A DNA stretch of 32,000 nucleotides from Candidatus Nitrospira inopinata (GTDB taxonomy: Bacteria; Nitrospirota; Nitrospiria; Nitrospirales; Nitrospiraceae), in contig NZ_LN885086.1 of NCBI RefSeq assembly GCF_001458695.1, positions 2,310,001 through 2,342,000 of the forward strand, in the 5' to 3' direction. Numbering within the stretch: the stretch's first letter is position 1; each line of letters begins with the position of its first letter. The translations under genes were made by a program, and so were the position numbers. Below, one piece after another: positions 15,500 through 31,184 of the stretch. The notes under the pieces are model-generated. The model did not search any database. It was not told the origin of the DNA and worked only from the letters and a program-made list of their open reading frames with translations.

Positions 15500-16108
15500 T
15501 TAGGAGTTGAAAACTTGAACCAGAATTCCGGTACGAGTCGAGGCGTTCGTTTTTCTCATGATGTGCTTAATGTGCTCCTTTACTGTCTGCTCGGTAATTT
15601 GGAGCGCATTGGCAATCTCTTTGTTGGTCCATCCCTTAGCGAGATGTTCGATGACTTCTTGCTCTCGGCCGGTCAATTGGAAGCGGTCACGCGCATGGTC
15701 TGCATTCAGCGTTTTTCTTCGTCCCAGTTCCTCCATGGTCACGACAAGTCTGGCGTTTTGGATGCCGCCTCGGTCCGGGAGACCGAATCCGCGCAAAAGG
15801 ATCGGTTGACCAGGATCCCCCGCAATACGCTTCAGTTCGAATTGCTCCCAGTCTTTAGCTTCGGTTCGAATGTGGAGGGCCTTGATGATTTCTCCGCACA
15901 GCTCTGTGAGAGCTGCAGGTAGAACCCCATGGGCGAATTTTGCGCTATTGCCTCCATGTTCCACTTCATTGATTTTCTTGGAAAGTTCAGATGCCTGGCG
16001 ATTCATGTGGAGCAATTGCATAGAGGCTGAAAGGACGACGATCCCCGATCCTGCGCGTTGATCGGCAAGGCTGTCGGTTTGATCAAGAACACCGGGACCG
16101 TTGGTCAT
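15500..16108 (-). CDS. LuxR-family transcriptional regulator with an uncharacterised N-terminal domain (EpsA-like by position)
   Basis: The C-terminal GerE/LuxR HTH reads LTGREQEVIEHLAKGWTNKEIANALQITEQTVKEHIKHIMRKTNASTR. There is no receiver-domain Asp pocket. The gene is divergent from the EPS operon. Confidence 0.8.
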   Translation of the reverse strand: MTNGPGVLDQTDSLADQRAGSGIVVLSASMQLLHMNRQASELSKKINEVEHGGNSAKFAHGVLPAALTELCGEIIKALHIRTEAKDWEQFELKRIAGDPGQPILLRGFGLPDRGGIQNARLVVTMEELGRRKTLNADHARDRFQLTGREQEVIEHLAKGWTNKEIANALQITEQTVKEHIKHIMRKTNASTRTGILVQVFNS

Positions 16109-16491: not shown

Positions 16492-16839
16492 GTGACGCAG
16501 AAAGAATGGGAGTGGCCTATGAAGAACGACAACCATGCAACTCATAGCGAGCGAGCGGCACTTCTACGACCGATTCCCTATGAGATGACCTCGCCAATCG
16601 ACGAAGATGTGGAAAAGGGAAAAGGGAAGGCGTTGTCTCTGAATATCAGCCGGGGGGGCATGTTGGTGATGATGGATCAGGCGCCCAAGATTGAGCAGGT
16701 GTTGAAGGTGTATGTTCCCACGCCGATCACCATCGCCGAGACCCCGACGCTAGCCGAGGTGCGCTGGGTCAGAAAAGTACCGTTCGGGAAGACGAACGGA
16801 GGCGGGCCGTATTTTGTTGGACTCAAGTTCATATTCTGA
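16492..16839 (+). CDS. PilZ domain protein
   Basis: LNISRGGMLV matches the (D/N)xSxxG half of the c-di-GMP binding motif. The upstream half is ERAALLRP (RxxxxR rather than RxxxR). The protein is a small single-domain beta-barrel type. Alternative start ATG 16519 is preceded by GGAG. Confidence 0.75.
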   Translation: MTQKEWEWPMKNDNHATHSERAALLRPIPYEMTSPIDEDVEKGKGKALSLNISRGGMLVMMDQAPKIEQVLKVYVPTPITIAETPTLAEVRWVRKVPFGKTNGGGPYFVGLKFIF

Positions 16840-16856
16840 TATGACGGTGCGATGAA

Positions 16857-17585
16857 ATGATTGTTGGACGTCGTACCCCCCTGGTCACAGAGGCTCCAGC
16901 CGCCGTCGTTGCGGAAAATCGGTCATGTGTCAGAGCGACGATGTGGGCTTTATTGGTAGGGGCAGGGTTGTTCTGTGGTTCTGTCGAGGGCGAAGGGCTG
17001 GCGGAACTTTCGCTTCGAGTCCAAACCAAAGATGGCATGCGGGATTCGGACAAGTCTTCTCTTGTAGTCACGCAAGATTACATTATAGGACCGGAAGATG
17101 TGCTGGATGTCAGCGTCTGGAAGAACGCGGATCTTTCGAGAACGGTGCTGGTTCGCCCCGATGGAAAAATTTCTCTTCCATTGATTGGCGATGTCGTGGC
17201 CGTCGGGCTGACAGCGACTCAATTGGCGGACGTCATTTCAGAACGATTGAGAGAGTTCAAGGAAAATCCCCAGATCTCCATTGTGGTCAGGGAAATCAAC
17301 AGTTATGCGATCTATGTGCTCGGTGAAGTCGCGCATCCGGGAAAATATCCGCTGAAAAGCAAGACCACGTTATTACAGGCGATTACGTTGGCTGGCGGGT
17401 TTACGCCTACGGCGGTGCGGAATAAGATCGTCGTGTTTCGGTTTGGCGAGAGGGGAGAGAAAGACATCAAAATAAAAGTCAACTATGACGACATTATCTT
17501 GCGCGATGGTTCAACGCAAAATCTGATGCTGATTCCAGGCGATACCATCGTAGTCCCTTCGGAAACCATGGTGCTGGTGCCGTAA
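16857..17585 (+). CDS. Polysaccharide export protein, short Wza/EpsE-like (Poly_export + SLBB), paralog 1
   Basis: Key motifs are YIIGPEDVLDVSVWKNADLSRTVLVRPDGKISLPLIGDV.AVGLT..QLADVISERL and SYAIYVLGEVAHPGKYPL...TLLQAITLAGGFT. Alternative start ATG 16941 gives a signal-peptide-like MWALLVGAGLFCGS. Confidence 0.85.
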   Translation: MIVGRRTPLVTEAPAAVVAENRSCVRATMWALLVGAGLFCGSVEGEGLAELSLRVQTKDGMRDSDKSSLVVTQDYIIGPEDVLDVSVWKNADLSRTVLVRPDGKISLPLIGDVVAVGLTATQLADVISERLREFKENPQISIVVREINSYAIYVLGEVAHPGKYPLKSKTTLLQAITLAGGFTPTAVRNKIVVFRFGERGEKDIKIKVNYDDIILRDGSTQNLMLIPGDTIVVPSETMVLVP

Positions 17586-17599
17586 AAGAACACAGGAAA

Positions 17600-18268
17600 A
17601 TGAAAATTGGTCAGCCGTCCAAGATGTGGCTATCACCTCTTGCGATAAAAGGGAGGGAGGATCTTCTCTTGATCAGGATTTTGTTGTGCCCATTCATTCT
17701 TTTTCTAGGAGGTTGTTTGGCAGGGTCGATTCCAAACGAGGTGTTGGAAGAGGTGAATAGGCCACTTCCAAAGGATTTTTTGCTGGGCCCTGAAGATGTT
17801 GTGGAGGTGACGGTCTGGAAAAACCAGGATCTATCACGGATTGTTACCGTGCGACCGGATGGCATGATCTCGCTCCCGCTGATTGGTGATGTGCAAGCGA
17901 GTGGTCTGACGGCAGCTCAGGTTGGTGAGATCATTTCTAAACGGTTGTCCGAGTATAAAGAAAACCCCTCCGTGTCCGTCAGTGTGAAGGAGGTCAACAG
18001 TTACTATATCTATGTTATGGGCGAAGTCGTTCACCCCGGTAAGTTTCCGTTGAAATCGTATGCGACGGTTTTGCAAGGTATTTCGCTGGCCGGCGGATTT
18101 ACCCAATATGCATCCAAAAATCGGATGGCCGTCGTAAGGATAATAGATAAGGGAACACCGGATGAACGCCAGATCAGGATCCCGGTGAGATATGACGATT
18201 TAGTAACAGGGAACGGAGAAATCGGTAACTTTCAGCTGATGTCGGGTGATACCATTGTGGTGCCGTGA
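17600..18268 (+). CDS. Polysaccharide export protein, short Wza/EpsE-like, paralog 2 (lipoprotein)
   Basis: A lipobox FLGGC is followed by FLLGPEDVVEVTVWKNQDLSRIVTVRPDGMISLPLIGDVQASGLT and SYYIYVMGEVVHPGKFPL...VLQGISLAGGFT. It is colinear with paralog 1 over the whole mature length. AGGA precedes ATG 17600. Confidence 0.85.
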   Translation: MKIGQPSKMWLSPLAIKGREDLLLIRILLCPFILFLGGCLAGSIPNEVLEEVNRPLPKDFLLGPEDVVEVTVWKNQDLSRIVTVRPDGMISLPLIGDVQASGLTAAQVGEIISKRLSEYKENPSVSVSVKEVNSYYIYVMGEVVHPGKFPLKSYATVLQGISLAGGFTQYASKNRMAVVRIIDKGTPDERQIRIPVRYDDLVTGNGEIGNFQLMSGDTIVVP

Positions 18269-19619
18269 CCATTCCCTGTTGATACGTTTGGGCTTGGGGA
18301 TCTTGCTGGCGGGGGAAGCATTGATTGCCATGAGCAGCTGTGTTGCGCACGCGCAGGTACCCTATGGACCAGGTGGAGTGCCACAACTACAGTCGCCTTC
18401 AGCAGTGGTCGGAGATCTTGGGGCCGCTGTGGGGGAACTGGGACCTCTCCGCGTCATTCCAACCTTGATGGTGTCTGAGCGGTATGACAGCAACATCCTT
18501 GCGTTTAGAGGTATTGGCGGCCCCCAATGGGACTTTGTGACCGATGTATTTCCTGGTGCCCGTGTGATTCATTCCAACGATTATATCGATTGGACGCTGA
18601 CGGGGCAGGCTATTGCCAGTATCTATGTCAATAATCCCGGTTTGAACTACGTCGGCGCACAGGGGAGTTTCATGACGGTTTTGGATAAGATGTCAGAGAG
18701 GCTCATCCGTGGCCTTGGACTCCGGGTGAGCGGGACCGTTCTTTATTACCCCGAGCAACCGTCTTTTGTTTCCCCTCAAGCCTTGCAATCGGATTTTATT
18801 CGCGGGATTCAAGCCCGTCGAAATAACGCCATAAGCAACACAACCACCGTTCAAGGCGCTTACACCGTGAATCCGTTGGTCCAGGTCACTTCCTCCTATT
18901 CTTATCAGACCATGCGGTTCCTCGGTCAAACCGACTACGGAGATACCGGTCCTCCCGTTCCGCTGTTCGATCTTACAACACATGGCATGACTGCAGGATC
19001 AACCTATCTCGTTTTACCCAGTCAGAGGATCGGAATTTTATATTCCTATCGGGAGATGATGTTCGGATCAAGTACGGGTGACGGTCTTGTTGGAGAGCGT
19101 TTTGGAGGGCGTTCATTCGCCGTTCATGGAGCGAATGCCACATGGAGTGGGGAATTCGGTCGAGAATGGAGAGCCGAAGTATCGCCCGGCTTTTCCCTGG
19201 CGACTCAATTTCCCGACAGACTGCTGTGGACCATCAATGCGAGTCTCCACTGGATAGGCCGGCAAAAATCAGCCAGTGTTTCGTTCAGCAGGGGACTGTA
19301 TCCTAGTTTTTTTGGTGAGGCAGCGCTGCTCGCCAGCAACGTGGTCAGCGGGTCGGCTTCCTATCGTTTTTCTCAGAAGTGGGAAGTGGCTCTGGGGGCC
19401 AATTATGCCGTCAATACTCGAAGTGAAACCGGAGCCGGAGCGACTCCTCTGCGCTTTGAGTCCATCGGTGTCAATGGAACGCTCCGATATTCTTTGTATC
19501 GAGGAATCTCGGCCGCCATAACCGGGAGCCATGGTGACTTTACGATCGAGCAATCTGGTTCGACATTGAGCTATGACCGTCAGGTCGGCATGCTGACACT
19601 GACGGCGGAATGGAACTGA
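18246..19619 (+). CDS. Predicted outer-membrane beta-barrel protein of the EPS locus (EpsL-like by position)
   Basis: The N-terminus looks like a signal peptide (LGLGILLAGEALIAMSSCVAHA/Q). The composition is Gly/Ser/Thr/Tyr-rich with alternating hydrophobic residues and the C-terminus has an aromatic residue (...LTLTAEWN). The start is ambiguous. GTG 18246 overlaps the upstream gene by 23 nt, while TTG 18279 lies just after its stop. Confidence 0.6.
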   Translation: MIPLWCRDHSLLIRLGLGILLAGEALIAMSSCVAHAQVPYGPGGVPQLQSPSAVVGDLGAAVGELGPLRVIPTLMVSERYDSNILAFRGIGGPQWDFVTDVFPGARVIHSNDYIDWTLTGQAIASIYVNNPGLNYVGAQGSFMTVLDKMSERLIRGLGLRVSGTVLYYPEQPSFVSPQALQSDFIRGIQARRNNAISNTTTVQGAYTVNPLVQVTSSYSYQTMRFLGQTDYGDTGPPVPLFDLTTHGMTAGSTYLVLPSQRIGILYSYREMMFGSSTGDGLVGERFGGRSFAVHGANATWSGEFGREWRAEVSPGFSLATQFPDRLLWTINASLHWIGRQKSASVSFSRGLYPSFFGEAALLASNVVSGSASYRFSQKWEVALGANYAVNTRSETGAGATPLRFESIGVNGTLRYSLYRGISAAITGSHGDFTIEQSGSTLSYDRQVGMLTLTAEWN

Positions 19620-21940
19620 TGAGTACATCGGCTGAACTGACCATAGCGGACTATATCGATATTCTCCGCCGGCGCAAATGGATGATCGTCGGAGCAGTCG
19701 TGGTATGTCTGACAGCGTCTGTCGCTCTGTACGAGGTGCTCCCCAAAACTTATCGATCCACCACGACCATTCTCTTGGAAGGTCAGAAAATACCAGAAAA
19801 CTACGTCAAGACCGGGGTTGAAGGGAAAGTGGACTCACGGCTCTATGCCGTCCAGCAAATCGTGATGAGCCGCACGTTGCTGTCCAAAATAGGCGAGCAG
19901 TTCGGTCTGATCACGCCGCAGATGTCGTCGTTCGAGCGGGAGAGTGTGGTTCAGAGCATGAGGCAAAGGACTCAGGTCACCAAGATGAGGCTGGGCCATT
20001 TAAAAGGGCAGGACACGACAGAGGGCTTTACCTTGTCGTTCGATCATACGGATCCCGTGATTACCATGAAGGTGGCTGAGGCCCTGGCTGCTCAATTTAT
20101 CGAGCAGGACTTGAAGCTCCGGGAACAGATGCTTGAGGGAGCGTCAGAATTTCTCGAGCAAGAGCTTCGGTTGGCGGAAGCAAAATTGGAAGAACAAGAA
20201 CAGGCGATCAGTGCCTTCCGAGCCAAATACATGGGTGAATTGCCTCAACAAATGGAGGCCAATCTGCGAACTCTCGACCGGTTGCAAATGGACGTCATTG
20301 CGGCTCGGGACAATGTCCAGGCGGCTAAAAACAAAATAGAGGTCTTGGACCAACGAATCAAAGAGGCTGCTGCGGCTGCTGCTCAGGGGGTAGCACAGAC
20401 GGTGCCTACAATTTCTGGGCAACCGACGCACGGAGGCGACCCGTTGCTCGCACGCTTGGCAGAACTTGAGCGAAATTTAACCGCTCTCTCCGCGGAGTAT
20501 CGCGATAACTATCCGGACATCGTGCTCTTGCGCAAGGAAATCGACGCTGTCAAAGCACAGTTAGCCCTCAAATACGGTGTCCAAAAAGAAGAGGTTCAGC
20601 AAGGGTCCCCCAAGTTGATTGATCCGATCGTACTCGATTTGATGCGTCAGCGGGACGAAGCTGTCAAAGATCTTGAAGCTCGGCAAGATCGACTCCGCCG
20701 TTTACTTGAGCAGGTCAAAGACTACGAAGGACGGGTTGAGCGAACGCCGATGCGTGAGCAAGAACTCAGCATCTTGGTTCGTGACTACGACAATATGCAG
20801 AAGAATTATCAAGCGCTGCTCGATAAGCGGTTGAACGCACGATTGGCCGAAAATCTTGAAAAGCGGCAGAAGGGTGAACAGTTTCGGATTCTGGATCCCG
20901 CCAACCTTCCCATTGCGCCGGAGTCGCCCAAACAATACATGATTCTCTTGGGTGGCTTAGTCGTCGGATGCGGACTTGGTGGCGGCGCTGCCTTTGCCCT
21001 TGAGCTGTTCAGGCCGGCCTTTAGGCGTGTGGAGCAGGTAGAGGGAGCCTTGGGGGTTCCAATCCTCGCTGGCATACCATCCTTTTCAACCTTGATTCGA
21101 ACAGAAGCCAAACAGCTTGCGAGCTCAAACCCGAGGATTGAAGGATCAAAGAAATCCCGTCTGCTTGCGTACCTGGGAAGAGGACAAGATCGGGCGATGG
21201 CCTCCTCGCAGGAGGGGGCAGATCTCGTGTCCCCAGTCATTGCTTGGAACGTCGTGGCGAAATGGTGGCCGGATTCCATGATTTCTGAACAATATCGAGT
21301 GGCTGCGACAAGACTCGCTCTGATGGCAAGAGAGCATGAGCACCCCGTGGCGTTGGTGACCAGTTCGATTCTCGGTGAGGGGAAAAGCACGACCACGCTG
21401 AATCTTGGTTACACCTTCGCTCATGCGCTTGATAAGCGGACGCTGATCATCGATTGCGATTTCAAGCGCCCATCGACCAGTAGATATCTAGGCAAGCCAT
21501 ATGCCCCGGGATTAAGTGATTATTGGAGCGGAACTCATCCCATTGATTCCTGTATTCATCAAATTGACGAGGTGCCTCTTTGGGTGCTGCCTGCCGGAAC
21601 GGAAAGTCATCGCGTCTTTGAATTATCGAAAATCCGTGAATTGGAACACCTGCTGAATGAGTTAAAACCGAGATTCGACCAAATTTTGCTCGATACGCCG
21701 CCGGTTTTTCCTCTTGCGGATCTCAATTTCCTATCGAGGTTGGCGGACATACTCGTCTTTGTAATCATGGCCGGGAAGACAGGTCGTGACGTAGTCGAAA
21801 AAGCCCTGAAGGCGCTACGTCCGTCGTGCAAACTGGGGATCATTCTTGCGGGCGTGGAATCGACGAGCATGCCGTACTATCACTATTATCATCATCATGA
21901 TGAAGCGCGGGCGGTCGCTCGATATGCCGCAAGAAGGTAG
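19610..21940 (+). CDS. Fused polysaccharide chain-length determinant (Wzz-type) / bacterial tyrosine autokinase (BY-kinase)
   Basis: TM1 is WMIVGAVVVCLTASVALY. A long coiled-coil periplasmic region follows, then TM2 (YMILLGGLVVGCGLGGGAAFAL). The cytoplasmic P-loop domain has Walker A GEGKSTT, Walker A' LIIDCDFKRP and Walker B ILLDTPP. The C-terminal Tyr/His cluster YYHYYHHH lies at 21875-21898. Alternative ATG at 19619. Confidence 0.88.
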   Translation: MELMSTSAELTIADYIDILRRRKWMIVGAVVVCLTASVALYEVLPKTYRSTTTILLEGQKIPENYVKTGVEGKVDSRLYAVQQIVMSRTLLSKIGEQFGLITPQMSSFERESVVQSMRQRTQVTKMRLGHLKGQDTTEGFTLSFDHTDPVITMKVAEALAAQFIEQDLKLREQMLEGASEFLEQELRLAEAKLEEQEQAISAFRAKYMGELPQQMEANLRTLDRLQMDVIAARDNVQAAKNKIEVLDQRIKEAAAAAAQGVAQTVPTISGQPTHGGDPLLARLAELERNLTALSAEYRDNYPDIVLLRKEIDAVKAQLALKYGVQKEEVQQGSPKLIDPIVLDLMRQRDEAVKDLEARQDRLRRLLEQVKDYEGRVERTPMREQELSILVRDYDNMQKNYQALLDKRLNARLAENLEKRQKGEQFRILDPANLPIAPESPKQYMILLGGLVVGCGLGGGAAFALELFRPAFRRVEQVEGALGVPILAGIPSFSTLIRTEAKQLASSNPRIEGSKKSRLLAYLGRGQDRAMASSQEGADLVSPVIAWNVVAKWWPDSMISEQYRVAATRLALMAREHEHPVALVTSSILGEGKSTTTLNLGYTFAHALDKRTLIIDCDFKRPSTSRYLGKPYAPGLSDYWSGTHPIDSCIHQIDEVPLWVLPAGTESHRVFELSKIRELEHLLNELKPRFDQILLDTPPVFPLADLNFLSRLADILVFVIMAGKTGRDVVEKALKALRPSCKLGIILAGVESTSMPYYHYYHHHDEARAVARYAARR

Positions 21941-21942
21941 AG

Positions 21943-22995
21943 ATGGAAAAAACGATCACCCCCGTCCTACTCAAGCCGAATAAGGAGCAGGATTACGCGT
22001 CCGGCTTGGATTTGTTCAAGCGGCGGGTCGCTCTTCTCGGCTGCGGCCAGCTTGCGTTGGAGTTGTATCAGGTCCTTGCGGAGAAACGATGGACAAATCT
22101 GCAAATCGTAGGGGTGGTTGACCAGAATCCTCCACGTGCGACCGGTTCGCTTCCCGTCAAGGACCTACAAGTGCTGGGGAGTTGCGAGGATCTTTGCAGG
22201 ATCGTAGAGCAGTTCTCGGTCAACACGATCGTCGTGTGCATGGAGGACAGAAGAGCGGGATTACCGGTGAACGCGCTCCTTGATCTGAAAGCGAGAGGTA
22301 TCGAAGTCATCGATGGGCATCAGATGTTTGAGGAAGTGTCGGGTCGACTCTCGATCGATCAACTTCGCCCGAGTTCGCTCATTTTTTCAACCGGTTTTAA
22401 ACGAAGAGCTCCGACGAAAGTATTAAAACGAACGGTTGATTTGACGGCGTCCGCCCTTGGCTTAGCGATCCTGGCTCCGGCTTTATGCGTCATTGCTCTC
22501 TTGATCAAACTGGATTCTCCGGGGCCGGTGTTTTACCGGCAGATGCGCGTCGGATTGGGAGGGCAGCCGTTCATGATGTGGAAGTTTCGATCCATGTATC
22601 AGGAAGCGGAGCGCCATGGACCTCGCTGGGCCGAGAAAAACGACGCTCGTGTGTCGCGAGTGGGACGAATTCTGCGCAAATTTCGCCTTGACGAGATTCC
22701 ACAGCTCTATAACGTCATTCGAGGAGAAATGAGCCTCGTCGGGCCTCGTCCGGAACGCCCGGTCTTTGTCAACGAGCTGAGAAAAAGCATCCCCTATTAC
22801 GATATCAGGCACACGGTGAGACCGGGACTGACCGGTTGGGCGCAAACGCAGTTTCAATATGGCGCAAGCGCGGAAGACGCGCACGCCAAGCTGCAGTATG
22901 ACTTGTATTACGTCAAGAATATGACCTTTGCGTTGGATCTTCGGATCTTAATCGAAACGGTGCGGGTTGTGTTGCTTGGCGAAGGGGCTCGATAA
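21943..22995 (+). CDS. Polyprenyl-phosphate sugar-phosphate transferase (bacterial sugar transferase family; priming enzyme)
   Basis: The catalytic domain contains KRTVDLTASALGLAILAPALCVIALLIKLDSPGPVFYRQMRVGLGGQPFMMWKFRSM...DEIPQLYNVIRGEMSLVGPRPERP...GLTGWAQ. It is preceded by a Rossmann-like region (VALLGCGQLA...). No N-terminal multi-TM block is present. Confidence 0.9.
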   Translation: MEKTITPVLLKPNKEQDYASGLDLFKRRVALLGCGQLALELYQVLAEKRWTNLQIVGVVDQNPPRATGSLPVKDLQVLGSCEDLCRIVEQFSVNTIVVCMEDRRAGLPVNALLDLKARGIEVIDGHQMFEEVSGRLSIDQLRPSSLIFSTGFKRRAPTKVLKRTVDLTASALGLAILAPALCVIALLIKLDSPGPVFYRQMRVGLGGQPFMMWKFRSMYQEAERHGPRWAEKNDARVSRVGRILRKFRLDEIPQLYNVIRGEMSLVGPRPERPVFVNELRKSIPYYDIRHTVRPGLTGWAQTQFQYGASAEDAHAKLQYDLYYVKNMTFALDLRILIETVRVVLLGEGAR

Positions 22996-23006
22996 AAGGA
23001 TCAACC

Positions 23007-23948
23007 ATGAAGAGGGAGGGGGTGCATGCCTTGTCGTTCGACGTGGAAGAACACTTCCAGGTTTCTGCCTTCTGGTCGGACGAACGAAGAAACAAGTGGG
23101 AGAGCTATGAGAGCCGCGTTGAACGCAACGTGGAGAAGATACTGAACCTCCTTTCATTCCGCGGAATCCATGCCACCTTTTTTGTGCTCGGTTGGGTGGC
23201 GAGTCGTCATCGGGGACTCGTGAAAGCCATCGTTGATCAGGGACATGAGCTTGCTTCCCATGGGTTCGGTCATGAGTTGATCACAACCCAGCGGCCTGAT
23301 CAGTTTCGCGATGACGTTCGGAAAAGCAAGCAGCTTCTTGAGGACATTGCCGGAGTGCCCGTGTACGGCTACAGGGCGCCATCCTTTACGATTGTTCCAC
23401 GTACCCGATGGGCTCTCTCCATTCTTGTTGAGGAAGGCTATCTTTATGATTCAAGCATTTTCCCCGTCCGTCACGATCGCTACGGCATGCCGGAGGCCGA
23501 TCCCTACTGTCATCTGATAAAGACCGAAAGCGGGCCTCTGTGGGAGGTGCCCCTTTCTACGTTGAAGATGGGGCCTGTCCGTATTCCAATCGCAGGGGGA
23601 GGGTATTTTCGGCTGTTTCCATATCCGGTCTTGCGCAGGCTTCTCGATCGTGCCGTCGTTCACGGCCATCCGTTGATCATGTATCTTCACCCGTGGGAGC
23701 TGGATCCTGAGCAACCCAGAATGGTCGGATCGTGGCGTTCTGTCCTTCGCCATTATCTCAATCTGGGGAAAACGGAAATCCGGCTCCGACGGTTACTGGG
23801 GGATTTTCGATTCACCACCATACGGAACGCCGTCAAAGCGGTGGGAGAAGCCTGTAGTGAAAACCACAACAGTCGTCTCAGTACAGTGACGGTTAATGTT
23901 GGGCAAGATGCAAGCCGATATATAAAGACGGGGAGAGAGAATGCCTGA
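23007..23948 (+). CDS. Polysaccharide deacetylase family protein (PEP-CTERM/XrtA-locus subtype)
   Basis: ALSFDVEEHFQVSAF...ILNLLSFRGIHATFFVLGWVASRHRGLVKAIVDQGHELASHGFGHE is NodB-type, with the opening characteristic of the exosortase-locus subfamily as I recall it. The assignment has not been searched. Confidence 0.8.
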   Translation: MKREGVHALSFDVEEHFQVSAFWSDERRNKWESYESRVERNVEKILNLLSFRGIHATFFVLGWVASRHRGLVKAIVDQGHELASHGFGHELITTQRPDQFRDDVRKSKQLLEDIAGVPVYGYRAPSFTIVPRTRWALSILVEEGYLYDSSIFPVRHDRYGMPEADPYCHLIKTESGPLWEVPLSTLKMGPVRIPIAGGGYFRLFPYPVLRRLLDRAVVHGHPLIMYLHPWELDPEQPRMVGSWRSVLRHYLNLGKTEIRLRRLLGDFRFTTIRNAVKAVGEACSENHNSRLSTVTVNVGQDASRYIKTGRENA

Positions 23949-24447
23949 ACAGGCTGAAAGCGAATGGTATGTGGTGCGAACCAAACCTCATCAGGAGGCA
24001 GTGGCTGAATCGAGTTTGTTGAGGGGGGGGATTGAGGCGCTCTGCCCGCGAATCCAGGAGCGACGCGTCATTCGGAGAAAAATGCAGCAGATCATCAGTC
24101 CACTGTTTCCCGGGTATCTGTTTGCAAGGTCTTCCCCATCGGGATGGCGGTTGATTCAGTACGCTAGGGGTGTAAGTCATTTGGTCTCTTTCGGGGACGG
24201 GCCGGTCGTTGTGAGACCGGAAGTCATGGAAGAGATTTTTAGAAGACTCGAAAGAGGCATTGTTGTTCCTCAGCCTAGAACATTCGCGCATGGCGACGTG
24301 GTGCGGATTACCGAAGGCCCTCTGCAAGGCTTGGAAGCGGTGTTCGAGCGGGAACTGGCAGGACAGCAGCGAGCGATGTTGCTGATGAAGATGCTGGCCG
24401 GTCAAGTGCGCGTGGTGTTGGATTTGAGTTCCATTGTGAATGCCTAA
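23941..24447 (+). CDS. rfaH: RfaH-like specialised NusG paralog (transcription antiterminator)
   Basis: The protein is 168 aa. NGN domain motifs are WYVVRTKPHQE...PLFPGYLFAR...ARGVSHLVSFG. The KOW domain reads GDVVRITEGPLQGLEAVFERELAGQQRAMLLMKML. It is colinear by eye with E. coli RfaH. It overlaps the deacetylase gene by 8 nt and lies inside a polysaccharide locus rather than next to secE/rplK. Confidence 0.8.
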   Translation: MPEQAESEWYVVRTKPHQEAVAESSLLRGGIEALCPRIQERRVIRRKMQQIISPLFPGYLFARSSPSGWRLIQYARGVSHLVSFGDGPVVVRPEVMEEIFRRLERGIVVPQPRTFAHGDVVRITEGPLQGLEAVFERELAGQQRAMLLMKMLAGQVRVVLDLSSIVNA

Positions 24448-24630
24448 TCGGTCATAAACACTTGTCGTTGAAGACTTCTGGGCTGGACGCTGCATAAAGA
24501 GCGTGAGAAGTGCCCGGTAGCGTCGTATCATCGACCTTCAATGAGACATTGATGTGTCTGAGAAGTGTCGACGATAGCAAAGCAAGAAAAAATGGGATGA
24601 GAAAGTCATCACTGGTCTCTGCACCGGAAG

Positions 24631-24642
24631 GGCGGTAGCCTG
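24631..24642 (+). promoter_or_regulatory. ops-like element GGCGGTAGCCTG (matches consensus GGCGGTAGnnTG at all specified positions)
   Basis: Read directly from the sequence. It is on the + (non-template) strand in the 290-nt non-coding leader between the RfaH-like gene and the AsnB-like gene, about 95 nt upstream of ATG 24738. Confidence 0.6.
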
Positions 24643-24737
24643 TTCCCCGTTCAGCGTTTTCCCGATGTCGCCCGCGGCTGTCAAGTCATCTGAAACTTGC
24701 GAAGGTCCCCATACATAACAACGCTAGTCATCCTTAT

Positions 24738-26681
24738 ATGTGTGGTATAGCCGGATTTGTGGCACAAAACGGCGGCTCCTGTAACGATGGAATGATCCGC
24801 CGCATGATCGCGATGATCAATCATCGCGGACCGGATGCCGTCGGATTTCACATGGACGGGCCGGTTGGGTTGGGACATGCCAGGCTGAGCATTATCGATC
24901 TCGACGGAGGGGCTCAGCCGATGCCGAACGAAGACGAAACCCTGTGGATTACCTTCAACGGAGAAATTTTCAATTACGTGGAATTGCGAGACGAGCTGAT
25001 CAAGAAAGGACATCGGTTCAGAACCCAGTCTGATACGGAAGTCATCCTTCATTTGTACGAGGAAAAAGGCGAATCCTGCGTCCTCGACCTCAATGGACAG
25101 TGGGCATTCGCGATTTGGGACGTGAAGCGGAGACGGTTGTTTCTGTCACGCGACAGACTGGGCATCCGTCCGCTCTTCTATGCGACAACGAAGGACGGCT
25201 TTGGATTCGCATCCGAGATCAAGTCCTTGCTGACCATCCCGTCGCTGCCGCGGGTGATCGATCCACTTGCGCTGGACCAAATCTTCACCTTCTGGGTGAC
25301 AATTCCTCCCACGACGATGTTTGCCGGAGTGTCGGAACTTCCTTCCGGCCATTGTTTGACCCTGGAGGAGGGGAGAATCACGGTCGCTCCCTTTTGGACG
25401 CTGGAGTACAAAAGCGGCGCGAGAATCGGAAGCGAGCAGGAAGCCCGCGAGGAGCTGCTTGCTCTGCTGCTCGATGCCACGAGGCTTCGATTACGATCGG
25501 ACGTGCCGGTCGGAGCCTATCTAAGCGGCGGACTGGATTCGACTGTGATCGCCGCACTGATCAAGAGACTCGGCGTCACGCGCTTGAAAACCTTTTCCGT
25601 GGCGTTCGAGGACAAGGAATTCGACGAAAGCGCGTTTCAAGAGGAAGCTCGCCAATTTCTCGGCACCGATCATCAAACCGTGCTGTGCCGGCCGGGCGAC
25701 ATCGGACGAATATTCCCCGAGGTGATCTGGCATACGGAAACGCCGATTGTACGGACCGCTCCCGCGCCGTTGTTTCTGTTGTCCAAGCTGGTTCATGAGC
25801 AGGGATATAAGGTTGTGTTGACGGGCGAAGGGTCCGACGAGGTCTTGGGCGGATACGACATTTTTAAGGAGGCCAAGATTCGTCGGTTTTGGGCCAACCA
25901 GCCGGAGTCGAAGTTCCGCCCGCTCCTTCTGAGAAAGCTCTATCCGTACATGAAAAATCTTCAATCCCAGCCGGATGCCTACTTGCGGGCGTTTTTTCAC
26001 GTGCGCAAACAGGAACTGAACAGCCCGTTTTTCTCGCATCTGCCTCGCTGGGAGATGACGTCCAAACTGAAGCAATTCTTTTCGCAAGAGGTGAAAGATC
26101 GCATCGGGAGCAGCCAAGCCTTGCATCGGTTGGAGAAACGGTTGCCGCACAATTACGATCGGTGGGATTGGTTCGCCCGATCGCAATATTTGGAGACCGC
26201 CTATCTATTGCCCGGGTATATTTTGTCGTCGCAGGGGGATCGGATGGCGATGGCTCACTCCGTCGAAGGGCGATTCCCTTTTTTGGACTATCGCCTTGTC
26301 CAGTTCGCGGCCAGACTTCCCCCGCGCCTCAAGATGAACGTCTTGAATGAAAAGTATCTCTTGAAGCAAGCGGCCGGCTCCTTGGTCCCTGAGACGATTC
26401 GCAAGCGGCACAAACAGCCCTATCGTGCTCCTGACAGCCAAAGTTTTCTTCTTCGGGATGGCTCTCATTCGATGGTGGAGTATGCCGAAGAATTGCTCAG
26501 CCCCCACGCGATAGCTCATGCCGGTCTGTTTGATGCGGAGAGAGTAGGAAAGTTGGTGGAAAAAGTTCGGGCGGGACAGGCCATTGGTGTGAAAGACAAC
26601 ATGGCCTTCGTCGGGATTTTGTCGGCGCAGTTGGTGGTGGATCGGTTCATCAAGCATTTTCCCAAGGAGCAAACACTATGA
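24738..26681 (+). CDS. Asparagine synthase (glutamine-hydrolysing) family amidotransferase, exosortase-locus type
   Basis: MCGIAGFV carries the Ntn Cys2, and the glutaminase domain contains HRGPD and HARLSIIDL. The synthetase domain has the PP-loop SGGLDS (YLSGGLDSTVIAAL). The protein is 647 aa. I see no obvious Shine-Dalgarno upstream (GCTAGTCATCCTTATATG). Confidence 0.88.
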   Translation: MCGIAGFVAQNGGSCNDGMIRRMIAMINHRGPDAVGFHMDGPVGLGHARLSIIDLDGGAQPMPNEDETLWITFNGEIFNYVELRDELIKKGHRFRTQSDTEVILHLYEEKGESCVLDLNGQWAFAIWDVKRRRLFLSRDRLGIRPLFYATTKDGFGFASEIKSLLTIPSLPRVIDPLALDQIFTFWVTIPPTTMFAGVSELPSGHCLTLEEGRITVAPFWTLEYKSGARIGSEQEAREELLALLLDATRLRLRSDVPVGAYLSGGLDSTVIAALIKRLGVTRLKTFSVAFEDKEFDESAFQEEARQFLGTDHQTVLCRPGDIGRIFPEVIWHTETPIVRTAPAPLFLLSKLVHEQGYKVVLTGEGSDEVLGGYDIFKEAKIRRFWANQPESKFRPLLLRKLYPYMKNLQSQPDAYLRAFFHVRKQELNSPFFSHLPRWEMTSKLKQFFSQEVKDRIGSSQALHRLEKRLPHNYDRWDWFARSQYLETAYLLPGYILSSQGDRMAMAHSVEGRFPFLDYRLVQFAARLPPRLKMNVLNEKYLLKQAAGSLVPETIRKRHKQPYRAPDSQSFLLRDGSHSMVEYAEELLSPHAIAHAGLFDAERVGKLVEKVRAGQAIGVKDNMAFVGILSAQLVVDRFIKHFPKEQTL

Positions 26682-26947
26682 CGCCAATTGAGGCTCAGGT
26701 ACGGCGGTACGTGACGGATCGATTGTTGTTTGGGCGGTCGGATGTCGCGGTTGAAGGCGACACGTCGTTCTTGGAATCTGGGCTGATCGATTCGACGGGA
26801 GTCTTGGAGTTGGTCGCCTTCCTGGAAGAAAGCTTTAAAATCAAAGTAGAAGACGAAGACCTTATTCCGGCGAATCTTGATTCGATCAATGCACTGACTC
26901 GGTTTATTCAGGCTAAATCTCCAGCCCTCGCCGATAGTCGCGCCTAG
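26678..26947 (+). CDS. Acyl carrier protein
   Basis: The protein is 89 aa and has a phosphopantetheine-attachment-like motif GLIDSTGVLELVAFLEESF. The start overlaps the upstream stop (ATGA). Confidence 0.8.
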   Translation: MTPIEAQVRRYVTDRLLFGRSDVAVEGDTSFLESGLIDSTGVLELVAFLEESFKIKVEDEDLIPANLDSINALTRFIQAKSPALADSRA

Positions 26948-26953
26948 GTCTCC

Positions 26954-29900
26954 ATGCTGGTCGAGGAATTTTTAGAAGCGAGCGCCGCCCGTCTCCCTGA
27001 CAAGGTCGCTGTTGTTGCGGGAGAGCGAAGGATCACGTATAGAGAACTCGACGAGCGGGCAAATGCGTTGGCCCATTCGCTTGTGCAGGCTGGTATTCAA
27101 CGGGGAGAGCGCGTCGTCATCTGCCTTGCCAACTCCATCGAAGTCGTGCTTTCGATTTTTGGGGTTTTGAAGGCGGGCGGTGTGTTTGCAGTGTTGAGCC
27201 CTTCAGCGAAGGCCGAAAAAATAGGCTATGTTCTGACACAGAGTCGGGCGTCCGGTCTCATCATGGCGGGCAAACGCCTGAGTGAACTCTTGCCCCTGAC
27301 AGACCAACTTAATGGCCTTCAAGTCATTGTGGGGACCGGAGCGGTGACCAAGGAGCAATGGGAAGGGACCCCGAAAGTGGTCTCGTTCGCGCAGTGTATA
27401 GAGAATGAAGGTCGTCGGAACGCTCCCCCCAAACGGAACATTGATGTTGATCTGGCCGCGCTGATCTACACATCGTCCTCCACCGGCGAATCGAAGGGGG
27501 TCATGCTCACTCATCTAAACATCCGTTCGGCAGCCGCCTCCATTCTTGCCTATTTGGAGTATGGACAGGACGACGTTATTCTCAATGTCCTCCCTCTCTC
27601 GTTCGATTACGGGCTGTATCAAGTCTTAATGGGCGTCAAGGTCGGCGCTCGAATCGTTCTTGAGCCGTCGTTCGCCTATCCTCATGCGGTGTTCCAACGC
27701 ATCGAGCAGGAACGTGTCACCGTACTGCCGTTGGTCCCGACGTTGATCGCTGCGTTGCTTGAAACGAAGCCAGACCGCTATGACTTGACTTCCGTCCGAT
27801 GTATAACTACGACGGGAGCCGCCCTGCCGACCGATCACATCGGGCGGTTGCGTGAACGTCTGCCGAAGGCGAAACTGTTCTCGATGTACGGCCTGACGGA
27901 GTGTAAACGGGTGTCGTATCTTCCGCCGGAAGAATTGGATCGAAGGCCGATGTCCGTGGGAAAGGGCATGCCAAACCAAGAACTTTATCTGGTGGATGTC
28001 GATGGCAATCGTCTTGGGCCGGGATCGATGGGAGAACTCGTGGTCAGGGGATCTCACGTGATGAAGGGCTATTGGAACATGCCGGAAGAGACCGCCCGTG
28101 TATTGAAGCCCGGTCCTTGGGGAGACGAGCGAGTGCTGTTCACGGGCGATTGGTTCCGCATGGATGAGGAAGGCTATCTTTACTTCATCGGTCGCAAGGA
28201 CGATATGATCAAAACGGGCGGGAAAAAAGTCAGCCCGCGCGAGGTGGAAAACGTCCTGCACGGCATAACGGAGATTGCGGAGGCGGCGGTCATCGGAGTG
28301 CCCGATCCTCGACTCGGCCATGTGGTCAAGGCCTTCGTTCGCCTGCGCGAAAGCGCCGATCTTACGGAAGCGGACGTGATCCGTCACTGCCGAAGCTCTC
28401 TTGAAGACTACATGGTTCCGAAAGTCGTTGCGTTTATCGAGGCCTTTCCAAGGACGGACAGTGGAAAGGTGGACAAAAGAGCTTTGGAGCAAATGAGCAC
28501 GTCTTCGCAAAGCGGCGGCCATTGGACGTCACCGGTCAAAGCCGAGAGCGACGATCCCCGCACGGCGGCGGAGGAATCCAGGATTGAGCGGATCATCAAC
28601 AGTGTGATGGAGGCGCACGGTCAGAGGACGGCGGTCGTTTATAAAAACGAACGGTATACCTATGGAGACCTGCGCACGCTCGTCAATGTTCAAAAAAGCA
28701 AGTTGGCCGATGCGGGTTTGACCAGACAGGACCGGGCCATCATCTGGATGGAAAATTCTCCCGAGTATGTCGTGACCTACTTGGCGGTATTGGAACTGGA
28801 GGCGATCGTGGTGGCGCTCCATCCTCAAACGACTACGGAAGAAGTGGTGCGGATTATCCGCCACGTGGGTGCCGCAGGTGTGATCATCTCTCCAACCGTG
28901 AAACACTGGACGATGGGCGATTTTGAATCCGCCGGGATCCGCTTCGTACTGGCGGGCGACGGCCTTCATCGTTTGCGGGCCTTCGACCAAGGACAGGCCG
29001 TTCCCGATGGGATTGCGCAGATCATCTATACGTCCGGCTCGACTGGACGACCGAAGGGCGTAGTACTCACCCATCGGAATCTCATTGCGAACACGAGATC
29101 GATTCTGGACTATTTGCAGTTGACCCGTGAAGATTCGGTCATGGCGGTTTTGCCGTTCGTTTACGCCTACGGCAACTCCGTCATGCTGACACACTTGTTT
29201 GCGGGAGGTGCGCTCGCGATCGAGAACAACATGCTGTATCCGCAGACGGTCGTGGATGCCATGATCAAGAATAACGTGACCGGATTATCCGGCGTCTCCA
29301 CAACCTACGCGCTGTTGCTGAATAACTCGAACTTCAAATCCTCAACCTTCCCCGCCTTGCGGTACCTCACCCACGCGGGAGGGCCAATGCCGTCGGAGTT
29401 GTTGGGCCGAATCCGAACCGCGTTCCCGGATCGGCAAATTTATTTGATGTACGGCCAAACCGAAGCCTCGGCCCGTCTGACCTATCTTCCTCCGGAACTG
29501 TTGGACGTCAAAAAAGGATCAGCAGGGCGTGCAATTCCAGGAGTGAGGCTCAAGATCGTCAAGGATGGAGGGGAGACGGCTCGGCCCGGCGAGGCTGGAG
29601 AAATTTGGGCCTTCGGCGACAATATCATGCAGGGCTATTGGCAAGACCCGGAACTGACGGCCGAAGTCCTCCAAGGTGGATGGCTGCGCACGGGAGACGT
29701 TGGCTGGTTGGATGAAGAAGGGTTTGTGACCATCGTCGGGCGCAATAATGAAATGATCAAATCCGGCGCGTATCGGATCAGTCCGACGGAGATCGAGGAA
29801 GTCCTGTTGCAGCATCCTCAAATCTTGGAAACCGGTGTCGTGGGAATCGAAGATCCGATTTTGGGACAGAAAATCTGCGCGGTGGTGGTTCTCAAGGAAG

Positions 29901-30085
29901 AGGGATTTCTCACCCAGCGCGATTTGATGGGCTACTGCGCACAACGGCTGGTCCCCTACAAGAGACCGAAGGTTATTGCCATCGTCTCCGCCTTACCGAA
30001 ATCCCCTTCCGGCAAGATTTTGCGACATCGCTTGCGCGAAATCGGTGTCGCGGCGGCCGGAGCGGCGGTCCCGGCTTCTTCATAG
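26954..30085 (+). CDS. Two-module adenylate-forming enzyme (tandem AMP-dependent synthetase/ligase domains in one polypeptide)
   Basis: Module 1 (approx. 26954-28500) has YTSSSTGESKGVMLTH, YGLTEC, GDWFRMDEEGYLYFIGRKDDMIKTGGKKVSPREVE and PRTDSGKVDKRAL. Module 2 (approx. 28580-30085) has YTSGSTGRPKGVVLTH, YGQTEA, GDVGWLDEEGFVTIVGRNNEMIKSGAYRISPTEIE and PKSPSGKILRHRL. Both modules share the YLPPE(E/L)LD motif. They are joined by a Ser/Pro/charged linker (MSTSSQSGGHWTSPVKAESDDPRTAAEES). Confidence 0.88.
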   Translation: MLVEEFLEASAARLPDKVAVVAGERRITYRELDERANALAHSLVQAGIQRGERVVICLANSIEVVLSIFGVLKAGGVFAVLSPSAKAEKIGYVLTQSRASGLIMAGKRLSELLPLTDQLNGLQVIVGTGAVTKEQWEGTPKVVSFAQCIENEGRRNAPPKRNIDVDLAALIYTSSSTGESKGVMLTHLNIRSAAASILAYLEYGQDDVILNVLPLSFDYGLYQVLMGVKVGARIVLEPSFAYPHAVFQRIEQERVTVLPLVPTLIAALLETKPDRYDLTSVRCITTTGAALPTDHIGRLRERLPKAKLFSMYGLTECKRVSYLPPEELDRRPMSVGKGMPNQELYLVDVDGNRLGPGSMGELVVRGSHVMKGYWNMPEETARVLKPGPWGDERVLFTGDWFRMDEEGYLYFIGRKDDMIKTGGKKVSPREVENVLHGITEIAEAAVIGVPDPRLGHVVKAFVRLRESADLTEADVIRHCRSSLEDYMVPKVVAFIEAFPRTDSGKVDKRALEQMSTSSQSGGHWTSPVKAESDDPRTAAEESRIERIINSVMEAHGQRTAVVYKNERYTYGDLRTLVNVQKSKLADAGLTRQDRAIIWMENSPEYVVTYLAVLELEAIVVALHPQTTTEEVVRIIRHVGAAGVIISPTVKHWTMGDFESAGIRFVLAGDGLHRLRAFDQGQAVPDGIAQIIYTSGSTGRPKGVVLTHRNLIANTRSILDYLQLTREDSVMAVLPFVYAYGNSVMLTHLFAGGALAIENNMLYPQTVVDAMIKNNVTGLSGVSTTYALLLNNSNFKSSTFPALRYLTHAGGPMPSELLGRIRTAFPDRQIYLMYGQTEASARLTYLPPELLDVKKGSAGRAIPGVRLKIVKDGGETARPGEAGEIWAFGDNIMQGYWQDPELTAEVLQGGWLRTGDVGWLDEEGFVTIVGRNNEMIKSGAYRISPTEIEEVLLQHPQILETGVVGIEDPILGQKICAVVVLKEEGFLTQRDLMGYCAQRLVPYKRPKVIAIVSALPKSPSGKILRHRLREIGVAAAGAAVPASS

Positions 30086-30106
30086 GCCGCCATCATTCAC
30101 CTATCC

Positions 30107-30118
30107 GGCGGTAGCTTA
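30107..30118 (+). promoter_or_regulatory. Second ops-core match GGCGGTAGCTTA (8-nt core exact; last position deviates from nnTG)
   Basis: Read directly from the sequence. It is on the + strand in the 84-nt spacer between the ligase gene and the NadE-like gene. Its GGCGG half can pair with CCGCC at 30087-30091. Confidence 0.3.
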
Positions 30119-30169
30119 AAAAAACGACGCGCTGTAATTCAGTTGGATACCCTACTAGGGAGAAACAAT

Positions 30170-31171
30170 ATGGGAGAAAACAGGAATAAGTTCTCGCCCG
30201 ATCATCTGCGGCTTGATGCAAAGGCCGAGGTCGAACGAATTGTCTCCTTCATCAGGGACACCGTGTTTACACGGCTCAAACGAAAGGGGATAGTCGTCGG
30301 CCTATCCGGAGGCATCGACAGCAGCACGGTCGTCGCCCTCGCCGTCCGCGCGTTGGGAGCCGATCGGGTGATCGGGTTGTTCATGCCGGAGTCCGATTCC
30401 TCGGATGACAGTTTGCGCTTGGGGCAATTGCTGGCGAAGGAGCTGGGGATCAAAACGTTCACCGAAGACATCTCCGGCATTCTTCGGGGAGCCGATTGTT
30501 ACCGCAGGCGTGATGAAGCGATTCGCACCGTGGTGCCGGAGTATCATTCCGGCTACAAGTCCAAGCTGGTGCTCTCCCCGCTCGACAGTTCCGAGTTTCG
30601 CATCTCCTACGTCGTGGTGCAGCCCCCGGAGGGCGAGCAGCGCAAGATCCGTCTGACAGCCGAGGCATTTTTGGCGCTGGTTGCCGCGACAAACTTTAAG
30701 CAGCGTACCAGGAAGATGATGGAGTATTACTATGCCGATCGCTTTCTGTACGCTGTTGCGGGGACGCCGAATCGGTTGGAGTACGATCTTGGGTTTTTTG
30801 TCAAAAACGGGGACGGCTCGGCCGATATCAAGCCAATCGCGCACCTGTACAAATCGCAAGTCTATCAACTCGCTGGGTATCTCGGCGTGCCGCAGGAGAT
30901 TTTGAATCGTCCCCCCACCACCGACACGTACTCGCTGCCCCAGTCGCAGGAAGAATTCTATTTCTCTCTCCCGTACGACAAGATGGACCTTTGTCTGTAC
31001 GGCAAGACCCATCGATTGCCTGCTTCGGAGGTCGCCGAGGCGCTTGGAATGAGCGAAGCTCAGGTCGAACGGGTGTATCGCGATATCGACGCCAAGCGAG
31101 CCGTCGCCCGTTACCTTCACATGGAGCCGTTGCTCATCGAACCGATCAAGGAAGCGGTCGTCGATTTTTAA
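30170..31171 (+). CDS. NAD+ synthase (NadE)-family PP-loop ATP pyrophosphatase
   Basis: The PP-loop is VVGLSGGIDSSTVVALAVRALG. NadE-like blocks include FKQRTRKMMEYYYA, AGTPNRLEYDLGFFVKNGDGSADIKPIAHLYKSQVYQLAGYLGVP and PPTTD. ATG 30170 is preceded by GGGAG. The ORF-track TTG at 30143 is a possible alternative start. Confidence 0.8.
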   Translation: MGENRNKFSPDHLRLDAKAEVERIVSFIRDTVFTRLKRKGIVVGLSGGIDSSTVVALAVRALGADRVIGLFMPESDSSDDSLRLGQLLAKELGIKTFTEDISGILRGADCYRRRDEAIRTVVPEYHSGYKSKLVLSPLDSSEFRISYVVVQPPEGEQRKIRLTAEAFLALVAATNFKQRTRKMMEYYYADRFLYAVAGTPNRLEYDLGFFVKNGDGSADIKPIAHLYKSQVYQLAGYLGVPQEILNRPPTTDTYSLPQSQEEFYFSLPYDKMDLCLYGKTHRLPASEVAEALGMSEAQVERVYRDIDAKRAVARYLHMEPLLIEPIKEAVVDF

Positions 31172-31184
31172 AGTTCTCTCCTCC

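Follow-up and report, generated by a model that had tools for sequence, protein, structure and literature searches.

Can a NusG paralog encoded far from the enteric bacteria load onto RNA polymerase at the kind of DNA signal that recruits RfaH in Escherichia coli? RfaH and its ops element are the standard example of an elongation factor loaded at a specific sequence, and the question is raised here by DNA from Candidatus Nitrospira inopinata, analysed as one 32-kb stretch (the window; all coordinates below are window positions). The window carries a gene for a 168-aa RfaH-like protein inside an exopolysaccharide locus, and an ops-like element lies in the non-coding leader that follows this gene. 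A preliminary description of the locus had proposed that the protein acts on the genes downstream of this element, and that interpretation is supported overall by the present analysis. A hairpin directly upstream of ops, absent from the earlier reading, is added here, and the element is thus larger than the 12-mer. We regard it as quite likely that the 168-aa protein belongs to the specialised NusG paralogs of RfaH type and controls the polysaccharide locus in which it is encoded. The features that carry this reading are the following (covariance model R1 is described below).

23941–24447, + strand: gene for the RfaH-like NusG paralog, 168 aa, ATG start (open reading frame; profile, PDB and structure comparisons)
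24448–24737, + strand: non-coding gap (leader) of 290 nt, poorly conserved outside the hairpin and the ops-like element
24612–24627, + strand: JUMPstart-type hairpin (covariation, RNAalifold)
24631–24642, + strand (non-template strand): ops-like element GGCGGTAGCCTG (exact consensus match, comparative data, model R1)

As had been claimed, GGCGGTAGCCTG is an exact match to the ops consensus GGCGGTAGnnTG and the only one in the window, where 0.03 matches were expected and 3 of 100 shuffled sequences gave one. With one mismatch allowed, there were four matches compared with 1.7 expected, which is not significant. Taken alone, the single exact 12-mer match is suggestive, and it becomes decisive only with the comparative data. 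The distances given in the preliminary description also held, the element lying 184 nt past the stop of the RfaH-like gene and approximately 95 nt ahead of the ATG of an AsnB-like gene (24738). It is thus located in the presumed leader of a long operon, where it would be transcribed. The putative flipped base, T6, corresponds to position 24636, and the predicted pause would place the RNA 3' end at T11 (24641).

To extend the comparison beyond the window, one genome per species was scanned, giving 80 loci with relatives of the protein at 33–91 % identity, or 81 together with the window. The hosts were Nitrospira, other Nitrospirota, Nitrospinota, Acidobacteriota, Verrucomicrobiota, Binatia, metagenome-assembled genomes (MAGs) labelled 'Deltaproteobacteria' and a few others. 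In 49 of the 81 loci, a copy of GGCGG[T/C/A]AGC was found no more than 300 nt from the RfaH-like gene and on its coding strand (38 downstream, 11 upstream). Near the gene its density was 1.0 per kb, about 31 times the 0.032 per kb counted over both strands in the remainder of these loci. In an alignment of nine Nitrospira leaders (46 % mean column identity), CTGGTCnnTGCACCGGAAnGGCGGTAGCCTG was the sole conserved island. Positions outside the motif used for selection were also constrained among 42 non-redundant sites, with a pyrimidine at position 10 in 39, a pyrimidine at position 11 in all 42 and a purine at position 12 in all 42. The ops element embodies the consensus for pausing (PMC7819879), and the constraint at positions 11 and 12 fits this consensus. 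Because the match is conserved beside the RfaH-like gene, always on the strand of the gene and in distant phyla, it is a phylogenetic footprint rather than a product of chance. The earlier suggestion of an E. coli-type ops outside the enteric bacteria is thereby borne out in several phyla.

Two of the relatives showed local irregularities. In L024, a Nitrospirae MAG, two copies of the element (5906 and 6549) flank the RfaH-like gene and share an identical 3' flank, GCGGTAGCCTGTCATGAGC, as if the site had been duplicated locally. In L046 (6001–6503), tblastn recovered the RfaH-like gene as two fragments whose frames differ, so that the gene is either a frameshifted pseudogene or misassembled, and the ops-like site downstream is intact.

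The hairpin of the window is composed of a 5' arm CTGGT (24612–24616), a loop CTCTGC (24617–24622) and a 3' arm ACCGG (24623–24627), followed by a spacer AAG (24628–24630) that leads into ops. In the family as a whole, the stem has 5–7 bp, the loop 3–8 nt and the spacer to ops usually 3 nt. The sequence differs by lineage and the pairing is kept, as in the stems CTGGT/ACCGG, CCGGC/GCCGG, AAGGCC/GGCCTT, AAGGCAG/CTGCCTT, ACGGGT/ACCCGT and CCCGC/GCGGG. Covariance model R1, built from nine distant relatives only, gave 52 matches in 835 kb, all of them on the strand of the gene. Among the 51 distinct sites represented by these matches, 97 % of cells were paired and all five pairs had changed on both sides. 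There were 39 compensatory cells vs 7.2 in shuffles (none of 500 shuffles reached 39) and slid controls showed 17–51 % pairing, counts that are to be read with the caveat that the alignment was fitted to R1. RNAalifold, applied to five leaders, found the same hairpin independently. With filters off, R1 gave a single significant match in the window (24608–24646, E 6e-5), the next best having an E-value of 1.4. The presence of G-U pairs in the stem means that the hairpin forms in the + strand only.

The E. coli JUMPstart is built in the same way, with a short covarying hairpin of 5 bp directly before ops. All 5,426 complete E. coli genomes contained a 39-nt JUMPstart sequence of E. coli. As positive controls, the rfb and waaQ leaders of K-12 matched Rfam RF01707 with 60 and 55 bits; their stems differ by a compensatory change from U-A to A-U. 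Both were also recovered by R1 as its only matches in 14 kb of E. coli sequence (E 0.021 and 0.22). The RF01707 consensus consists of a 5-bp hairpin, 1 nt and then GGCGGUAGCGUG, whereas the Nitrospira element has a spacer of about 3 nt, an unrelated loop sequence and a pyrimidine at position 10. JUMPstart has been listed for gamma-Proteobacteria only, with its conserved stem-loop noted (Weinberg et al. 2010), in contrast to the nitrospirotal host here. RF01707 gave no match on seven related loci, and no known Rfam family covering the Nitrospira element was found. The Nitrospira element is thus a divergent JUMPstart-type element outside the Rfam family as now modelled. In the K-12 waaQ leader (L082, 4167–4239), the annotated small RNA gene rirA overlaps JUMPstart/ops, which shows that the element, once transcribed, can act at the RNA level in E. 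coli.

Three further sequence features of the window were considered and set aside. A second near-ops sequence, GGCGGTAGCTTA (30107–30118, between the ligase and NAD-synthase-like genes), was rejected as probably due to chance because it is unconserved even in the 91 %-identical locus L001 and has neither a hairpin nor a model match. A partial ops core, CGGTAGCGT (24515–24523), 108 nt upstream of the real site, is common only to L001 and was not counted; a comparable half-repeat, GGTAGCTG, lies in the loop of the E. coli JUMPstart. The approximately 95 nt 3' of ops contain 33 % C and 19 % G, and a rut-like excess of C over G after ops was rejected as a family trait, being present in the window but not general in the family.

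The affiliation of the 168-aa protein was predicted from profile, sequence and structure comparisons. RfaH was the top-scoring NusG-superfamily model among the NCBIfam profiles (TIGR01955, 115.3 bits; NF006534, 104.1 bits), followed by UpxY (70), LoaP (45) and NusG (41.3), so the comparison of RfaH with general NusG models came out in favour of the former. Pfam matched the NusG N-terminal (NGN) domain only. The best PDB sequence match was E. coli RfaH, aligned end-to-end at approximately 33 % identity (75 bits, E 6e-20), compared with 38 bits or less and E-values of 1e-8 or worse for NusG sequences in the PDB. In an AlphaFold2 model built from 113 homologs, the N-terminal domain had a predicted local distance difference test (pLDDT) score above 90. 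This domain superposed on that of E. coli RfaH with 1.4–1.9 Å over 95–98 residues and on the N-terminal domains of NusG with 3.4–5.8 Å. The lowest Foldseek E-value belonged to an integrative NusG model but with a root-mean-square deviation of 14.4 Å, and the RfaH superposition was by far the tightest among the best fold matches.

Residues of functional interest in E. coli RfaH were then located in the protein. The ops-contact side chains K10, R23 and R73 are kept as K15, R28 and R76, and the contact residue H20 is changed to S. F56, F130 and R138 are kept as F61, F135 and R144 and are invariant or nearly so in family alignments; F61, equivalent to the residue that contacts the beta' clamp helices, is invariant in the 113 homologs. 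I93 is conservatively changed to M96. At the position of the NusG I-F-G loop (L145-I146-N147 in E. coli RfaH), the protein has M151-L152-A153, and the NusG motif is absent, with no FG. By alignment, the protein thus appears to combine the beta' clamp-helix contact with loss of the Rho-binding I-F-G loop of NusG. Overall, it is a specialised NusG paralog closest to RfaH.

A protein of N. inopinata with 100 % identity to this one is named 'NusG' in its NCBI record, and the chance of one exact 12-mer match in a window of this size is about 3 %, so it could be supposed that the match is accidental and the reading frame an ordinary housekeeping NusG. The site is kept across phyla, however, and the protein fails the housekeeping NusG equivalog, with 41.3 bits vs a cut-off of 135.7. 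The neighbours of the gene are polysaccharide genes and the secE/rplK context is absent in the window, as the preliminary description had noted in placing the gene outside a housekeeping setting. Chance together with housekeeping NusG is effectively refuted. JGI already labels many related proteins 'RfaH', so nothing is new in the gene call as such.

Evidence on recognition comes from the base at position 6. In E. coli, the pocket that receives the flipped T6 of ops is made up of H20, R23, Q24 and R73, and the only side chains that touch ops DNA are K10, H20, R23 and R73 (Zuber 2018, PMC5995543). Base 6 in the 42 non-redundant sites was T in 20, C in 19 and A in 3. Equivalents of both R23 and R73 were present in 14 of 21 proteins with T6 vs 0 of 24 with C6 or A6 (Fisher 7e-7), and after dereplication at 70 % identity in 10 of 16 vs 0 of 15 (p 2.5e-4), statistics that are not formally corrected for phylogeny. 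When the two characters are mapped on a neighbour-joining tree, at least 11 changes are needed for base 6 and at least 8 for the R/R state, and several sister pairs differ in both. The N. inopinata pair combines T6 with R28 and R76. Co-variation of base 6 with the R23 and R73 equivalents is the pattern expected from direct read-out.

An A6 variant, GGCGGAAGC, was observed in four groundwater Nitrospirae MAGs (L059, L060, L068 and L069), again with an AsnB-like gene downstream. The hairpins of these loci are AAGGCC/GGCCTT or AAGGCAG/CTGCCTT, and in their proteins the R23 equivalent is H or Q and the R73 equivalent K or R.

A different possibility is that the element acts mainly as RNA, its hairpin and a single-stranded GGCGGUAGC tail being bound by the RfaH-like protein or another factor, rather than through read-out of non-template DNA. 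The target of LoaP is a leader RNA hairpin, and the E. coli RirA RNA is cut from the waaQ JUMPstart leader; an RNA element in Nitrospira would resemble either case. The covariation of the hairpin, which includes G-U pairs, means that a structure in the single-stranded + strand is under selection. With polymerase paused at position 11, the hairpin region would already be behind the transcription bubble and the structure would be in RNA. Rfam also treats JUMPstart as an RNA motif, and rirA is annotated over the K-12 waaQ JUMPstart. Against this, the invariant core corresponds to the sequence read as DNA by E. coli RfaH, with the same mini-hairpin potential, base 6 co-varies with residues that form the DNA T6 pocket, and the pyrimidine-11/purine-12 pattern fits a pause signal. 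A mainly RNA-based mode is therefore considered unlikely, and the RNA and DNA read-out modes are not mutually exclusive.

It is less probable still that the motif acts as a signal for factor-independent pausing, RNA processing or stability, or is the operator of a regulator such as a LuxR-type protein, with the NusG paralog loading in cis and leaving the motif unread. Under the ancestral cis-loading model, NusG paralogs encoded in operons can do without a DNA signal (PMC7819879; PMC13015549), ops is itself a consensus pause, and the window has a LuxR-family gene at 15500–16108. The element, however, tracks the RfaH-like gene despite differing neighbours and on either side of the gene. All 52 R1 matches are on the strand of the gene and the hairpin includes G-U pairs, unlike a double-stranded operator, and the pocket residues of the protein change together with base 6. 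A metagenome scan for ACCGGNNNGGCGGTAGC, a 14-base motif, was carried out for targets in trans and gave at least 120 matches. The 120 listed are chance matches in GC-rich coding DNA; among those listed, none adjoins an RfaH-like gene and none has a consistent hairpin. The scan is uninformative on trans targets and serves as a negative control.

The surrounding genes were assigned as follows.

16857–23948, + strand: promoter-proximal half of the XrtA/PEP-CTERM exopolysaccharide locus (Pfam and NCBIfam matches; order kept in Nitrospira relatives)
23007–23948, + strand: XrtA-type polysaccharide deacetylase gene (TIGR03006, over cut-off)
24738–32000, + strand: putative target genes 3' of ops (profile matches and a longer copy of the contig)
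24738–26681, + strand: AsnB-like amidotransferase
26678–26947, + strand: ACP
26954–30085, + strand: two-module acyl-CoA ligase (TIGR03098, over cut-off)
30170–31171, + strand: NAD-synthase-like gene
31185 to beyond the window end, + strand: EpsH+EpsI exosortase, 513 aa (longer copy of the same contig)

The proximal half encodes two export proteins, a 457-aa protein, a chain-length determinant/tyrosine kinase, a priming glycosyltransferase (TIGR03013) and the XrtA-type deacetylase (TIGR03006). These genes have the same direction as the RfaH-like gene and are closely packed against it. From its ATG to the TGA of the deacetylase gene, the two reading frames share 8 nt, the overlap that had been reported before. 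The operon that starts with the AsnB-like gene has at least seven genes, with more lying 3' of the exosortase gene in the longer contig copy. An exosortase gene is present and TIGR03006, TIGR03013 and TIGR03098 all score over their cut-offs, which places the genes in an XrtA/PEP-CTERM locus. The earlier term 'exosortase-proximal' is also apt, the exosortase gene beginning at 31185 in the downstream co-directional operon. In Nitrospira, the gene order is kept as export, unknown, chain-length/kinase, priming transferase, deacetylase, RfaH-like, AsnB-like, ACP and ligase.

The first 15 kb of the window are occupied by housekeeping genes (glmU, gatA, gatB, eno, era, mgtE, recO and glgA). Upstream of the polysaccharide locus and on the opposite strand is a LuxR/GerE-type regulator gene (15500–16108, − strand). 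Directly 5' of the first export gene is a gene for a small PilZ-domain protein (16492–16839, + strand), which hints at cyclic di-GMP input into the locus. The 457-aa protein (18246–19619, + strand) has no Pfam or NCBIfam match, and its position between the export and chain-length genes is kept across Nitrospirota loci at 23–93 % identity. The exosortase-associated acyl-CoA ligase (1043 aa) is a fusion of two complete AMP-binding modules and is preceded by the stand-alone ACP and the AsnB-like gene.

The 290-nt gap was searched for signals that would separate two operons. No conserved sigma-70-type promoter was found in it, a weak sigma-70-like match at 24503–24531 being rejected as unconserved, and no −10/−35 pair at a fixed distance from the hairpin was found in 42 loci. 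No intrinsic terminator was found 3' of the RfaH-like gene on the + strand of the gap, and folding of the whole leader showed no more structure than shuffled sequence (z-score +0.48). Because neither a promoter nor a terminator is detectable in the gap, the presumed next operon may be the distal half of one long operon, with the ops-like site as an internal loading point. The feed-forward layout proposed in the preliminary description is retained in so far as the factor gene lies 184 nt upstream of the presumed loading site, but a separate next operon lacks a detectable promoter and terminator. The absence of a Shine–Dalgarno sequence before the AsnB-like gene was likewise confirmed (no complementarity to the anti-Shine–Dalgarno sequence at its start, free energy 0). 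Several other window genes are also weak in this respect, so the absence is undistinctive and is given little weight.

For the preferred reading, pausing, loading, antitermination and ribosome coupling are inferred from their E. coli counterparts, and the following order of events is envisaged. RNA polymerase would arrive from the upstream genes, most likely by read-through and possibly from an unrecognised promoter, transcribe the hairpin at 24612–24627 and then pause in the ops-like element, its transcript ending near 24641. The hairpin, which is 14 nt away from this predicted 3' end, may limit backtracking or stabilise the pause. In the paused complex, the non-template strand GGCGGTAGC could form a mini-hairpin (G2:C9, C3:G8 and possibly G1:C10) that would expose G5 and T6. 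T6 would be read by the N-terminal-domain pocket, which retains the K10, R23 and R73 equivalents (K15, R28 and R76). The loaded factor would then ride the polymerase through 8 kb or more of distal genes, namely the AsnB-like, ACP, ligase, NAD-synthase-like, exosortase and further genes. On the way it would exclude NusG/Rho-dependent termination and possibly couple the lead ribosome.

The lack of a conserved promoter in the gap and of a promoter pair at a fixed distance from the hairpin is one of several points that weigh against this reading. The protein scores under the curated RfaH equivalog cut-offs (115.3 vs 144.5 for TIGR01955; 104.1 vs 124 for NF006534). H20, Q24 and E48 are replaced by S25, G29 and S53, and the HTTT motif is absent. 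The cut-offs being missed and two ops-pocket residues, H20 and Q24, being replaced, 'RfaH-like' rather than 'RfaH' is the right term for the protein. The C-terminal domain of the AlphaFold2 model has a pLDDT of approximately 60, with strands at 120–122 and 132–134 and helices at 141–152 and 162–166, a low-confidence mixed model that neither affirms nor excludes RfaH-style autoinhibition and fold switching. Of the residues linked to the autoinhibited alpha-helical KOW domain of free RfaH, which refolds into a beta-barrel (E48, I93, F130 and the E48-R138 bridge), the protein keeps F135 and R144 and has M96 and S53 in place of I93 and E48. RF01707 gave no match to the Nitrospira element at E ≤ 10, even in a 55-nt search (gathering threshold 35 bits). 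In 32 of the 81 loci, GGCGG[T/C/A]AGC is absent within 300 nt of the gene. They include a clade of Binatia and 'Deltaproteobacteria' MAGs (L038, L047–L049, L054, L056, L057, L064–L067, L072, L074, L077 and L079) that has no convincing hairpin-ops element nearby, its three bare core matches lacking both a hairpin and a model match. Proteins of this clade have P at the R73 position (S in L066) and, in about half, V at F130, and the clade may use a different signal. The base 6 statistics, which lack a formal correction for phylogeny, belong to the same account.

Among the known systems close to the locus is E. coli RfaH with ops/JUMPstart, with which it shares an RfaH-like N-terminal domain, the equivalents of K10, R23, R73, F56, F130 and R138, and, in an untranslated leader before a long polysaccharide operon, GGCGGTAGnnTG on the non-template strand. 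E. coli rfaH, however, is a stand-alone gene acting in trans, whereas the Nitrospira gene is inside the regulated locus and directly upstream of the site. The H20, Q24, E48 and HTTT features of the E. coli protein are replaced or absent, scores are below the curated cut-offs, and base 6, T in E. coli ops, is C or A at some sites of the family. PrfaH of IncX plasmids (and ActX-type paralogs) is similar in that an RfaH-like factor lies beside its target operon with an ops-like site near its own gene (PMC11880322). In IncX plasmids, the site is 3' of the prfaH promoter with the gene behind ops, and the target is a conjugation operon, whereas here the gene precedes ops in a polysaccharide locus. 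Eleven related loci do have the PrfaH-like order, with the site upstream of the gene, and PDB 9ik0 was a weak sequence and fold match to the 168-aa protein.

Bacteroides UpxY, Myxococcus TaA and Bacillus LoaP are likewise cis-encoded NusG paralogs of long polysaccharide or polyketide operons (PMC7593976). Their recruitment signals are not established or are RNA-based, whereas the Nitrospira locus has an E. coli-type ops, and the UpxY and LoaP profiles score 70 and 45 bits vs 115 for RfaH. The 'mixed alpha/beta' or monomorphic RfaH homologs of a recent preprint (Tabilo-Agurto et al. 2026, PMC13015549) resemble the Nitrospira protein in a low-confidence mixed C-terminal domain and a long envelope-polysaccharide operon. 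Ops-independent recruitment in cis was proposed for those homologs, whereas here a conserved ops/JUMPstart-like site lies beside the gene.

RfaH has been reported in 23 of 117 phyla, with approximately 95 % of the proteins in Proteobacteria, and the details of how it is recruited are known for E. coli only (Wang et al. 2020). The same study inferred a late origin of the DNA-contact residues, preceded by a cis-acting stage. A literature search found no paper combining RfaH with an exosortase, and in a search for PEP-CTERM with NusG or antitermination, the top results did not mention PEP-CTERM. The conserved JUMPstart-like site, its placement beside operon-encoded copies and the co-variation of base 6 with the pocket appear to be new.

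These observations can be combined in a broader proposal, which is put forward tentatively and with confidence somewhat short of even. The ops/JUMPstart read-out may be ancient and re-programmable, with operon-encoded RfaH-like factors of Nitrospirota, Acidobacteriota, Verrucomicrobiota and other phyla loading at a hairpin-plus-ops element beside their own gene, and with base 6 (T, C or A) co-evolving with the R23 and R73 equivalents. The same DNA signal and JUMPstart hairpin accompany RfaH-like genes in phyla far from Proteobacteria, adjoin operon-encoded copies that current models assume need none, and precede an exosortase (PEP-CTERM) polysaccharide operon. If the proposal is true, the published order would be revised, in that DNA-contact residues and ops dependence would no longer come late, after a signal-free cis stage. 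The natural T, C and A variants at the flipped base, together with the pocket changes, would represent ready-made specificity swaps, and an ancient re-programmable read-out could yield orthogonal pairs of factor and site. For the transcription-elongation field, the comparative pattern suggests that RfaH/ops-type control extends far beyond the enteric bacteria. Model R1 finds sites missed by RF01707, which would allow better annotation of polysaccharide operon leaders in environmental bacteria, which is relevant to comammox Nitrospira, where biofilm and floc formation matter.

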